Shown one piece after another: positions 8,859 through 14,575 of a stretch of DNA of 24,203 nucleotides. The notes beneath the pieces are model-generated. The model did no database searches. It was given only the letters and a program-made list of their open reading frames with translations, and was not told where the DNA came from. This DNA comes from a virus (taxonomy: Duplodnaviria; Caudoviricetes): IMG/VR virus record IMGVR_UViG_3300047476_001212, positions 1 through 24,203 of that record. One strand, written 5' to 3'. Both the position numbers and the translations under genes were made by a program. Numbering within the stretch: the stretch's first letter is position 1; every line of letters begins with the position of its first letter.

Positions 8859-8898
8859 TTGCTTTGCTCCGTCATTGCTTCAATCAACTTACAAACGA

Positions 8899-8926
8899 TT
8901 AATAACACACTTTCTTTCAGCTGCAA
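8899..8926 (-). promoter_or_regulatory. Putative early promoter
   Basis: TTGCAG-N16-TATTAA with extended -10 TG and an upstream A/T tract resembling an UP element. Confidence 0.45.
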
Positions 8927-8957
8927 TGCTTTTTTTTAAAAAAAAGAACTCCCTCTT

Positions 8958-8985
8958 CACTAGTGATCACTAGTGTACACTAGTG
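8958..8985. repeat. Three palindromic CACTAGTG boxes at 10-bp period
   Basis: Copies at 8958, 8968 and 8978, next to the perfect palindrome C-T8-A8-G (8929-8946). Confidence 0.9.
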
Positions 8986-9457
8986 GGATGCTTGTCCTTA
9001 TATATGTAATGGGTTGCGCTTGTGTAAGTGTTTGAAATGTCTATTGGTAGCTTGATTCCATGGCTCATGGGTGAGCCGCAGCGTAGCGATACCGGCTCAA
9101 TCCATGATGCCATCCGAACGAGTATGGGCGTAGTTCAGCCCAACGGAGTGAGGCATTCATCGAAGGATGGGGGGGTTAAAGGGGTTTAGGGCATAAGCGC
9201 AAGCGATGCCCGAGTGTGTAGGGGTATTAGGGGGGGGAAACGAAAGGGCTGTCAAGGAAAATCGTACTTAGCCAGCCAGAATTCTTGTCAAGTCGAATAT
9301 ATGCGAGATGAGGTGAAATAGTCGTTGCATACCGGAAAACGCCTGCGCCGCCCAAAGCGCCCACGAAGCCCCCCAGAGGGGCGAGAAAGTGAGCTTCCCC
9401 ACGCTCCCAAAACCCCCCAAAAAAGATCGTTCGTTCATCATCGTCTCTTTGCCCCAC

Positions 9458-9618
9458 GAGTTCGTTCGATCATGCGAACGATGCCTGGGCGATTAGTTCG
9501 TTGTGTCGTTGTGAGATCGTTGAAACGAACCATGCACAATCGTTTGAGTTCGTTCGATCATGCGTTCGTGTAACAGAACTCTAATCATGTGCAGTGAATT
9601 AAGTTCGTGGCAAAGAAC
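9458..9618. repeat. 19-bp direct repeat and three GTTC-N8-GAAC sites
   Basis: GAGTTCGTTCGATCATGCG at 9458-9476 and 9546-9564; GTTC-N8-GAAC at 9464, 9564 and 9603. Confidence 0.85.
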
Positions 9619-9776
9619 CACGCATGATGTGAGGACGTGGCAGGAGGAAGGACGAGAATTAAAAGGGGGGTGGGTACGGTGGGGGTACCTGATCCGAGTG
9701 GGCCTGTTCCATATAGCACTCCCCCACCTGTGCCAGTCGGTTCTATATGTTACTTTGCAACACGCCCCAACCAGAC

Positions 9777-9806
9777 TAAACTAGGATAAACTGGGATAAA
9801 CTTGCT
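9777..9806 (+). repeat. Imperfect 10-bp tandem repeat (TAAACTnGGA x3)
   Basis: taaactagga taaactggga taaacttgct. Confidence 0.8.
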
Positions 9807-9814
9807 ATAAATGG

Positions 9815-9990
9815 ACGAGGCAGCTCAGATTTGAGCCACCCCTATCAGTGAAGCATACGGGGGTCTGGAACGTCCGTGGTTGCGCTGTAGCCGCAGAGTG
9901 AGCACTTAGCCCATCCCCTGAGCTCCGGATGCGGTATAAGGGTTCCTGAGTGGCAATTAGGGCAAATGTACTGCGCTAATGCCTCTTCGT
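9815..9990 (+). ncRNA. Candidate structured ncRNA (~175 nt, multibranch)
   Basis: Closing stem GAGGCA/TGCCTC encloses seven further helices; G-U wobbles favour the plus strand; extended -10 TGcTATAAA just upstream. Manual fold only. Confidence 0.5.
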
Positions 9991-9996
9991 ATTCCC

Positions 9997-10941
9997 TCAT
10001 AGTGGGATAAATCTTGGACCCCATTGGTCAATTACTCCAAATCCTACCGTCCAGTGGACGGTTTTGGTTGCCGTGTAGCTGAGGGGTCTGGAGTTAGGGT
10101 CACCAAGATATCCTGCGTTTAATTCAAAGATGATCTTACCTGACTCTAATTGTCCGTAATATACCCCGCCTGTATGAGTGTGCCCGCAAATGACGTTCTT
10201 AGTAAAGCGCTTTGCATGGCTCCCAAGCCCTGACAGGTGTCCGTGGGTGAAGTGGTAATTTTCTATAGTTAGCCACTCTCTGGGGTCTGTTACAGTGTGT
10301 ACTGAATCAAACTGATACCAGCGGTTAATTTCTATGAAGATCTCTATTTCTGGAGCAAGCTCCATGACCTTCTTAAGTGGGCGTACATCGTGGTTGCCCA
10401 TGATCTGGTAAAGGGCTGCCTTGGGGAGCATGGCCCTAATCTTGCTCCACATCTCTTCGGCCATCTTCCTTCCAAGCTCTATTTCTGCCTTGGGAGTATA
10501 AAGCATGTGGCTTCTAGGAAACTTGGCCCATGAGTACATGTCATATAAGTCGCCCACCTGTATGACGTGGGATATATCGGGATTTGCCTCAATAAACTGA
10601 TATACCGCCTCCAAGGCCCCCACATTCACCCATGGGAAGTGCGTGTCGCCTAAGATCAGGAACTTGCTCTTTATGCCTAAGGCTGGCTTTTTAATTGCCG
10701 TATCGTGCTGAATGGAGCCGATCGGGGCAATGAAGGCAGCATTCTTGTCTGTTTTTTCAGCGTAGGTCTTAAGCCCGGCAGCCATTAAAAAGGGGGTAAA
10801 CCCCCCGAATAAGCGCCTGTACGCTTTTTCCCCTATCTTTGTATGCTTTCTATATTCGTCTCTGGTGGGGGAGTGTCCTAACTCTGAAGCAATCTCTTTT
10901 AATTCAGCAATTAGCCTATGCTTAAGATCACTTTGCCCCAT
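9997..10941 (-). CDS. Calcineurin-like metallophosphoesterase with N-terminal homing-endonuclease-associated repeat
   Basis: GDTH, GDLYD, GNHD, THGH and GHTH motifs; N-terminal ELKEIASELGHSPTRDEY...YRRLFGGF...AAGL. Confidence 0.85.
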   Translation of the reverse strand: MGQSDLKHRLIAELKEIASELGHSPTRDEYRKHTKIGEKAYRRLFGGFTPFLMAAGLKTYAEKTDKNAAFIAPIGSIQHDTAIKKPALGIKSKFLILGDTHFPWVNVGALEAVYQFIEANPDISHVIQVGDLYDMYSWAKFPRSHMLYTPKAEIELGRKMAEEMWSKIRAMLPKAALYQIMGNHDVRPLKKVMELAPEIEIFIEINRWYQFDSVHTVTDPREWLTIENYHFTHGHLSGLGSHAKRFTKNVICGHTHTGGVYYGQLESGKIIFELNAGYLGDPNSRPLSYTATKTVHWTVGFGVIDQWGPRFIPL

Positions 10942-10947
10942 GACAAA

Positions 10948-10993
10948 ATGGTACAGGGCTTTGACAGTGCGTCAACCAGCCTAGTTTTATAAT
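10948..10993. promoter_or_regulatory. Back-to-back divergent promoters sharing the palindrome TTGAC-N5-GTCAA
   Basis: Minus: TTGACG-N16-TACCAT, with the ATG at 10941 starting 7 nt later (leaderless). Plus: TTGACA at 10961 with TAGTTT or TATAAT at non-optimal spacing. Confidence 0.45.
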
Positions 10994-11157
10994 CGGGTGC
11001 CAGTCGCGACTCTGGCCTGAACCTACTAGTTATGTAGCATTCTCGTCCCTGCTACCTTCAGTTTAAGGCACTGCGAGAAATGTGCCCTGCGTGTCTCCAG
11101 TGGCTTGTCCGAACGGTTTTATTGCACTCGCCACAGCCTGTCCCACGCCGACCCGAT
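10992..11157. ncRNA. Candidate structured ncRNA (~166 nt, five-way junction with loop-loop pairing)
   Basis: Closing stem ATCGGGT/ACCCGAT; arms GCCAG/CTGGC, CTGAA..GTAGCA/TGCTAC.TTCAG, GGCAC/GTGCC and GCGTG..GTGGC/GCCAC..CACGC; loops TTCTCG and CGAGAA are complementary. Strand uncertain. Confidence 0.55.
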
Positions 11158-11161
11158 ATCT

Positions 11162-11305
11162 TTAAAAACTGCTGCTAATTGCTTTCAATACAAAAGCTGA
11201 AAATTTTGTTGCGCCAATGGCAATTAGTTGAATTGTACTGAGCACAAAAATTAAAACCAAAATACCTAACAAAATACCCAATACGCACTTAAGAATGGCT
11301 TTCAC
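11162..11305 (-). CDS. Small membrane protein (47 aa)
   Basis: GTG start; MKAILKCVLGILLGILVLIFVLSTIQLIAIGATKFSAFVLKAISSSF; begins 3 nt after the upstream stop. Confidence 0.55.
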   Translation of the reverse strand: MKAILKCVLGILLGILVLIFVLSTIQLIAIGATKFSAFVLKAISSSF

Positions 11306-11308
11306 CTT

Positions 11309-11560
11309 CTATTTCTCCAGCGCAGCCTTTGCGCGTGACTTCGGAGTCCTGCCACGCTTTCCGTCAGAGAAAGTCGTGCCATTTGCAATGTCAGAAAGCA
11401 CTGCTCGCAACCTAGCGATTTCAAAAAACTGTAGGACGTAAATACGCTCGGCGCCCGGTGGGGTTTTCAGCATATCGTCCAGCGTCTTAACCTCCTGCTC
11501 TAGGCGATCAATCTCAGCCCGTAACTCGGCAGGAGTCATTTTGTCTTTCTTGGAAGCCAT
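11309..11560 (-). CDS. Hypothetical protein (N-terminal coiled coil)
   Basis: 83 aa; TAATG overlap with the CsrA-like gene. Confidence 0.65.
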   Translation of the reverse strand: MASKKDKMTPAELRAEIDRLEQEVKTLDDMLKTPPGAERIYVLQFFEIARLRAVLSDIANGTTFSDGKRGRTPKSRAKAALEK

Positions 11561-11742
11561 TAGTCTTCTCGCTTTTTCTCTAAAGCCTTTGACCTGTAGA
11601 CAGGAATAGACTTGTCGGCAAACACAATCAAAGAAGCGCTATAGCCGGAGGCGGAAATCTCTTCGAGCTTAATCTCGGTGTCTCCGACGTAAATAGATTC
11701 GCCTTCGTTAATTCTGAGCTTCAAGACGCCTTTAGCGGACAT
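11560..11742 (-). CDS. CsrA/RsmA-like carbon storage regulator (RNA-binding), divergent
   Basis: GVLKLRINEGESIYVGDTEIKL...ASLIVFADKSIPVYR aligns with CsrA ML.LTR..GESI.IGD.I.V...V.IGI.APK.V.V.R; start ATG 11742 with GAGGG RBS. Confidence 0.7.
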   Translation of the reverse strand: MSAKGVLKLRINEGESIYVGDTEIKLEEISASGYSASLIVFADKSIPVYRSKALEKKRED

Positions 11743-11862
11743 GGTGTTTCCCTCTATGACCATTTGTTACATTGTAATACATGTATGGTCCAGAGATAAA
11801 AAATTTTCTTGGGCTACCGCCGCCCTTACATATGCAAGGCTCTGAGAAGCAAATCAGGCAAT

Positions 11863-14490: not shown

Positions 14491-14575
14491 GGGGGCGTAG
14501 CTCAGTGGTTAGAGTAGTCGTGGCGACTGACGAGTATGCGACTGGACGGAGGTTCGATTCCTCTCGCCCCCTCCA
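14491..14575 (+). tRNA. tRNA-like gene with non-canonical anticodon arm (isotype undetermined)
   Basis: Acceptor GGGGGCG/CGCCCCC, U73, encoded CCA; D-arm GCTC-AGTGGTTA-GAGT; T-arm GGAGG-TTCGATT-CCTCT; no 7-nt U33-type anticodon loop; TAAACT -10 element 7 nt upstream. Confidence 0.8.

Follow-up and report, generated by a model that had tools for sequence, protein, structure and literature searches.

The stretch of DNA analysed here (the window, 24,203 nucleotides) is part of a tailed phage genome and sits in a 40.9-kb IMG/VR contig. Its phage genes include those for terminase, portal, DnaB-like helicase, replication initiator, RusA-like resolvase and CsrA-like proteins. Between a metallophosphoesterase gene and several small minus-strand ORFs lies a 166-nt RNA gene, the parts of which are listed here together with two features of its immediate context.

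10992..11157, minus strand: whole tRNA-shaped RNA gene, 166 nt, extended-D-arm form, as judged by fold, homologues and covariation
11151..11157, minus strand: 5' strand of the acceptor-like end helix P1; 7/7 pairs compensatory among 36 aligned members
10992..10998, minus strand: 3' strand of P1, without CCA after it
11149..11150, minus strand: conserved 2-nt CG linker; CG in 76/78 and 113/114 members, counts that include a G fixed by the search patterns
11089..11148, minus strand: D-like arm; stem formed by 11144-48 with 11089-93
11135-43 and 11094-99, minus strand: conserved purine-rich loop halves of the D-like arm
11100..11134, minus strand: insertion in the D-like loop, made up of a helix and a variable loop of 25 nt; missing from the minimal form
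11017..11088, minus strand: 72-nt cargo occupying the position of the anticodon and variable arms, with two arms of its own; unlike any other member's cargo
11074..11079, minus strand: kissing loop 1, UUCUCG, in cargo hairpin 11067-11086
11040..11045, minus strand: kissing loop 2, CGAGAA, in cargo hairpin 11034-11055
10999..11016, minus strand: T-like arm of 5 bp with an 8-nt loop (11004-11011); 4/5 pairs compensatory; family consensus RGUMGCGN
Within the loop of the 10999..11016 arm, minus strand: the UCGCGA palindrome
9997..10941, minus strand: metallophosphoesterase gene, downstream of the RNA; context, no conserved partner
10948..10975, minus strand: sigma70-type promoter serving the phosphoesterase gene downstream; context; by eye, a relative without the RNA has a comparable site

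The phosphoesterase is fused to an N-terminal HNH_repeat domain (PF18780) and is kept in the related phages L002, L003 and L016. In L003, a syntenic relative whose phosphoesterase is 57% identical, the RNA is absent at the corresponding site. The closest relative with the RNA, L016, carries a homologue at a different genomic site, immediately upstream of which are three tandem TGTAAAG words with 11-nt spacing (L016:12040-12081). A hydrophobic ORF of 47 amino acids (11162-11305, minus strand) stops 4 nt before the RNA in the window and, because it is not found at that site in L003, may have come with the RNA. The CsrA-like gene (11560-11763, minus strand; Pfam PF02599, phrog_8397) lies about 400 nt upstream of the RNA, and a similar ORF can be recognized by eye in L003. 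Elsewhere in the window, another tRNA-shaped gene (14491-14575, plus strand) is located between divergent replication and packaging modules. It has canonical D and T loops, CCA and an Rfam score of 52 bits, and is called tRNA-Arg GCG by ARAGORN, with an insert of about 18 nt replacing the normal anticodon loop. The stretch 8860-9845 is poor in ORFs and may be an origin or the end of the genome; a direct repeat of 19 nt without mismatches occurs at 9458 and 9546, and three CACTAGTG-like palindromes lie near 8957-8985. Contigs of four DNA sequencing runs, three of them perhaps from the same source DNA as the window, held no variant letters.

An initial sequence-only reading had proposed a five-way junction at this locus, and every helix and both loop features are present in the places claimed for them, with five helices sharing one junction. 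The same reading had left the strand undecided, with a promoter cited in favor of plus. This part can now be settled, as the RNA gene is on the minus strand. On that strand the five-way fold has an energy of -53.5 kcal/mol against an optimum of -53.8, and most helices have pair probabilities of 0.6-1.0. On the plus strand the fold (-46.9 kcal/mol) is 2.3 above the optimum of -49.2, and two helices reach only 0.04-0.07. Both these energetics and the tRNA genes near family members favor minus: all 36 tRNA or tmRNA genes that ARAGORN calls within 1 kb of a member (12/192 members) are on the RNA strand. Some of these genes are only 3-4 nt from the RNA, and one ARAGORN call falls inside a member's cargo. 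The supposed plus-strand promoter elements, TTGACA (10961-66) and TATAAT (10988-93), have a 21-nt spacer, the latter runs into the RNA end, and a promoter scan called no plus-strand site. Folding energy of the whole sequence, which had been proposed as a check, does not beat shuffles on either strand (plus, z -1.38, 20/200 shuffles as good; minus, z -1.05, 30/200). The structural case thus rests on covariation in relatives.

A covariance model built from this one sequence found the homologue in L016 (E 1.8e-10). A 15-mer common to the window and L016 occurs at 80 viral loci, 62 of which match the model at E up to 1, and further scans added 25 viral loci, 36 metagenome loci and, among the 185,579 genomes of GTDB, six places in four MAGs. 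The first parsed set comprises 78 distinct complete members, with nine core matches left unparsed. When only the terminal hairpin was searched, with the T-like arm fixed, 53 loci were recovered and the full frame was present in 38 of 48 distinct ones, including a shorter form. A scan for the minimal D-like arm only gave at least 121 loci, and among the matches listed 114 of 120 distinct loci had the full frame. An exact 20-mer of the short form is estimated to occur in about 390 stored viral stretches. In total at least 221 distinct members were parsed, nearly all of them from viral or metagenome contigs, and divergent members are undercounted in this figure because parsing was done by a script rather than by a family covariance model. 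The 192 members of the two main sets measure 97-323 nt, and among them are minimal members of 97-101 nt.

Several contigs carry two to four copies of the RNA, each with a different cargo. Cultured carriers include the Pseudomonas phages Persinger, PotUPM1 and Orimi01 and the Ochrobactrum phage POI1126; in the GenBank records of these four phages the RNA either has no annotation or overlaps an ORF listed as hypothetical. In Persinger (L227:1497-1597), the RNA begins 11 nt past the integrase stop codon. On another contig, a minimal member is preceded at a distance of about 200 nt by a Proteo-phage-1 RNA (RF03044; L250:899-979) in the same orientation. When the region was compared with cultured phages by BLAST, only chance hits came back, and the result was no different for an extended-form member. 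The RNA is rare in cellular genomes. The minimal pattern matched one of 401 genomes of one order, namely the centre genome itself, and E. coli genomes gave no match apart from one 22-nt plasmid match. Another scan matched 0/238 cellular genomes, which is weak evidence since the pattern used could not match its own centre genome. A mobile element was considered as an explanation and rejected, given the single copy in the 40.9-kb contig, ends that differ in every member and no target duplication visible by eye.

No member of the family, including the 80 loci searched at E up to 0.2-1, matched any Rfam family. The RNA region itself gave nothing at the gathering threshold and only two chance matches at E up to 10, which bears out the earlier suggestion of a compact, structured noncoding RNA belonging to no Rfam family. 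Considering these homologues and the covariation described next, the locus very probably contains a real RNA gene of the proposed shape, and one that belongs to a large uncatalogued family of tRNA-shaped phage RNAs.

From 5' to 3', each member consists of P1 (6-9 bp), the CG linker, the D-like arm, the cargo, the 5-bp T-like arm, whose 8-nt loop reads RGUMGCGN, and directly thereafter the 3' strand of P1. The D-like arm has the stem GCGUG/CACGC and the loop GAAAGCAGA; in the extended form, to which the copy in the window belongs, an inserted helix splits this loop. Among the 36 aligned members, all seven P1 pairs and four of the five T-like stem pairs change on both sides. P1 and T-like positions are paired in 98% of 753 cells compared to 29-45% in slid controls, fractions that are inflated by a parser that selected for pairing in both helices and that ignore kinship. 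The D stem was fixed by the search pattern in this set, and its covariation was therefore taken from 11 distinct minimal members that had been found via the T-like arm, where three of five pairs are doubly changed (one misaligned row included, and again with no correction for kinship). P1 is not strictly 7 bp in length, as the paired fraction is 0.92, 0.70 and 0.53 at positions 7, 8 and 9 against about 0.43 beyond.

The unpaired parts of the frame are also informative. A GC dinucleotide is kept in both loops (33/37 and 111/111), and the GC of the D-like loop could pair with that of the T-like loop to close an elbow, a contact that lies beyond proof by covariation because both dinucleotides hardly vary. 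Bases next to the GCs shift jointly: of 33 cases, 11 combine A with A, 15 U with C and four U with A. This may be no more than a signature of the two subfamilies. The base of the linker is coupled to the 3' end of the D-like loop, with C accompanying AGA in 32/33 cases and A accompanying GAA in 3/4. We take the CG linker to correspond to tRNA positions 8-9, and the coupling presumably falls at the place of the tRNA 8-14-21 triple. Cargos begin with A in 128 and end with A in 157 of 192 members, again a tRNA-like layout. The end helix is inferred to stack on the T-like arm, and the GCs in both loops together with the linker coupling are consistent with a tRNA-like elbow in three dimensions.

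As far as can be judged at the sequence level, then, the layout is that of a tRNA whose anticodon and variable arms have been replaced. A covarying P1 of 6-9 bp, a 5-bp stem, the CG linker and a D-like stem all agree with the tRNA model (RF00005). The family departs from it in other respects. An anticodon arm (5 bp with a 7-nt loop) occurs in only 5 of 192 members, neither a TΨC loop nor the GG of the D loop is found, the T-like loop being RGUMGCGN instead, and ARAGORN makes no call on the copy in the window. As to the 3' end, CCA is encoded in seven of 189 members. This frame is the conserved part of the RNA, and it went unrecognized in the sequence-only reading, which had stressed kissing loops and a palindrome that few members have.

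The cargo ranges from 30 to 270 nt and is never absent. Clustering of 269 cargo segments gave 243 clusters, the largest with 11 members (L228, L244, L257, L282, L284, L285, L290, L324, L331, L342 and L346). This subfamily includes Pseudomonas phage PotUPM1 and is suited to covariation analysis of a cargo. Three inserts (L049:316-518, L166:1893-2074 and L337:194-328) hold a second, near-canonical tRNA-like module, and a strict TΨC-type loop pattern is matched in seven of 192 members. A twister-like insert in L086, seen by eye, was dismissed as it has no Rfam support.

The kissing pair is real in this copy, since none of 3000 dinucleotide shuffles of the 72-nt cargo reaches its 6-nt match. On the minus strand it comprises six Watson-Crick pairs with a duplex energy of -7.7 kcal/mol, while the plus strand would give seven pairs including one wobble. 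It is not conserved, however. Complementarity of at least 6 nt occurs in three of 192 cargos, with all sequences different, and a search with the kissing-hairpin pattern recovered the window contig plus six loci that lack the remaining fold. The UCGCGA palindrome is likewise present in this RNA, but it is one variant of the conserved T-like loop that arises when the two variable positions are C and A, and it is found in only 10 of 192 members. Across the family, complementarity between cargo hairpin loops is nevertheless enriched (39/192 with at least 4 nt, 13.4 expected; three with at least 6 nt, about 0.1 expected), which argues for selected compact folds. Enrichment in the face of ever-different sequences indicates that kissing recurs as a means of making a cargo compact and is not a trait of the family as a whole. 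Cargos fold just modestly better than shuffles do (mean z -1.0 and -0.4), so much of the cargo may be near neutral.

These findings bear directly on the proposal that the RNA oligomerizes or serves in packaging, held together by its kissing loops and palindromic loop. The model for such a role is phi29 pRNA, which has complementary loops and a length similar to that of the copy in the window. GOLLD and ROOL, phage RNAs of unknown function encoded near tRNA islands, provide further precedent because they multimerize through kissing loops, according to the available part of one report (10.1101/2024.12.08.627333). The beyond-chance match in this copy fits such an RNA. In the family at large the loop complementarity on which it depends is not conserved, an outcome that the sequence-only reading had itself named as refuting, the counts of three and 10 members given above offer the proposal no support, and the RNA of L016 has neither feature while syntenic L003 lacks the RNA at this site altogether. 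Both terminase subunits, small and large, were matched in this phage, and the RNA is distant from that module; unlike phi29 pRNA, the family is not tied to packaging genes and has no Rfam match. GOLLD often exceeds 800 nt and both GOLLD and ROOL keep their kissing bridges, whereas the present family spans 97-323 nt with no conserved kiss. Neither was detected in 20 flanks of 5 kb. A packaging or oligomerizing function is thus very improbable.

Among 613 ORFs near 117 members, no recurrent partner gene was found, the largest protein cluster being present at four of the 117 loci. PHROG matches to neighbors (88 and 84 scanned) are varied and include integrase, portal, terminase, endolysin, helicase and methyltransferase. 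For the copy in the window, a CsrA-like protein encoded nearby invites the idea that the RNA is a sponge for this protein, and four GGA words are present on the RNA strand. Two of these four belong to the conserved frame, L003 keeps a similar gene, as judged by eye, without the RNA, and no CsrA-like cluster appears among the best 22 neighbor clusters by size. Of all the explanations weighed here, this sponge is the one we consider least probable.

A cis-acting element in polycistronic phage transcripts, such as a host RNase P site or a self-cleaving ribozyme needed for processing or stability, has somewhat more in its favor. By simple ORF calls, 36 of 45 members are co-oriented with the upstream gene and 18 of 45 have an ORF within 60 nt behind them, and the RNA can be tightly placed between tRNA genes. 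Yet a sigma70-type promoter lies just upstream of 10/75 extended members compared to 0/75 on the opposite side (1/111 for minimal members), and U-rich tails follow 37/77 extended members against 23/77 on the opposite side. For minimal members the tail counts are 9/111 and 13/111, and such tails are weak evidence of strand. Moreover, no gene class recurs downstream, and Rfam models of self-cleaving ribozymes, like those of riboswitches, gave no match. A cis element is therefore improbable, albeit less so than packaging.

A variable insert on a fixed frame would also suit an antisense RNA that presents guide loops from a tRNA-like scaffold, for which the C4 RNA of phage P1 and the CI RNA of phage P4, both antisense RNAs, can be taken as models. 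C-rich words are over-represented in cargos, for example CCTTC with 19 occurrences compared to 5.9 expected from mononucleotide shuffles. Against this, 110 members with long flanks have no excess complementarity to either strand of the surrounding ±1.2 kb, and for the copy in the window the best antisense match anywhere in the 40.9-kb contig has a length of 10 nt, where shuffles reach a median of 11. A guide function is accordingly ranked below the cis element, at a level where we would be surprised to see it confirmed.

The explanation we prefer, with a probability of about 0.45, is that the RNA is a non-decoding, tRNA-shaped carrier, processed by the host and stable, whose cargo would serve in trans as a decoy that engages RNA-binding or defence proteins of the host. 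The gene is a stand-alone phage gene, and covarying stems give its RNA the layout of a tRNA frame that encloses a hypervariable insert. Under this hypothesis, host tRNA-maturation enzymes would cut out this RNA and keep it stable, probably through RNase P and 3' trimming, by analogy with YrlA. Recognition by RNase P is not assured, however, because the loop of the T-like arm is 8 nt long and differs from the TΨC type. The frame would stack its end helix on the T-like arm and close its elbow through the GCs of both loops, leaving the fast-changing cargo, here a predicted kissing-loop domain, to meet host proteins as a putative decoy.

The main rival to this carrier holds that the frame itself is active, as a noncanonical mimic of the tRNA elbow or a tRNA-binding platform directed at one conserved host factor, with the cargo as filler. 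The ribosome, RNase P or a tRNA-targeting nuclease would be candidates for that factor. In phages that differ greatly from one another, about 20 unpaired bases are nearly invariant even as stems and cargo change, some minimal members measure just 97-101 nt, and two separate insertion points accept any sequence, all of which could be expected if only the frame mattered. It is harder to explain on these grounds why at least 30 nt of cargo is always retained, why complementarity between cargo loops is enriched, and why contigs with two to four copies carry different cargos. An active frame is on balance unlikely, but it deserves more serious consideration than any other competitor of the carrier.

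A bolder version of the carrier proposal, one that we regard as speculative and rather doubtful, is that the family constitutes a natural RNA display chassis in phages of many hosts, with its own noncanonical elbow and hundreds of swapped, unrelated folded modules. Such modules, among them kissing-loop domains and second tRNA-like modules, might be RNA effectors against host defence or regulation, and the family would then parallel, at the RNA level, the variable repertoire of anti-defence proteins. Whatever its role, the family offers hundreds of natural variants of a sharply split design in which a fixed frame holds a free cargo, and the two can be tested separately since the RNA occurs in cultured Pseudomonas and Ochrobactrum phages. 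If the cargo is an effector, the family would represent a class of phage RNA tools that has yet to be explored, and the engineered tRNA scaffold would have a counterpart in nature.

In this window the RNA is overlooked by both Rfam and ARAGORN, and several known RNAs were compared with it. The skipping-rope (RF02924), DUF2693-FD (RF02926) and salivarius-1 (RF03030) models matched neither this copy nor a 99-nt member at E up to 10, and they matched none of the 80 loci at E up to 0.2-1. Skipping-rope RNA associates with a nearby protein, as stated in the accessible part of its description (PMC5737381), and the present family differs in being without such a partner. PasD and STnc100, base-pairing sRNAs of E. 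coli prophages identified by RIL-seq (10.64898/2026.05.13.724894, in the portion available), were also set aside, as no member has an Rfam hit. Literature searches by motif and by description found no paper on the family, and the available portions of four further articles (PMC7609411, PMC10085705, PMC13085918 and PMC11662646) hold no description of it. The readable supplementary tables of Fremin et al. 2023 (PMC10690425) contain no match. That study, according to its accessible text, mined IMG/VR and lists 8,495 unnamed candidates from DNA viruses, and part of the family may therefore be among them.

More instructive comparisons come from RNAs that resemble tRNAs. YrlA, a bacterial Y RNA (RF02553) also present in phages, is a non-decoding RNA with a tRNA-like module on which tRNA enzymes act, and the M. 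smegmatis representative, whose acceptor stem has 7 bp, is a substrate of RNase P and receives CCA (PMC4201824, in the part accessible). YrlA adjoins Ro60 and has canonical D and T loops, unlike the family described here. No member matched RF02553, and no Ro60 cluster was seen among neighbors in the PHROG scan. Small tRNA-like phage RNAs without an assigned function include RNAC and RNAD of phage T4 (species 1 and 2), RNAs of 119-139 nt in a tRNA cluster that are 'of yet unknown functions' in the available text of one account (PMC9697503). By eye, T4 RNAC resembles the family in its acceptor-plus-T-arm end, and it contains GAGUAGCGU twice, which matches the T-like loop of the family. It differs in having a canonical TΨC-type arm at its end and in lacking the conserved D-like arm. 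The single-sequence model (R1), an insensitive test, did not match T4 RNAC, with which the family shares the loop word only.

Individual tmRNA traits are scarce among members: G3:U70 in one of 189, CCA in 7/189 as noted, a tag-like ORF end in one cargo and no TΨC loop. In the tRNA-like domain of tmRNA, the acceptor and T arm close a large insert located at the anticodon position. It is in this general architecture, an acceptor and T-arm frame enclosing a large insert, that the phage RNA family resembles tmRNA.
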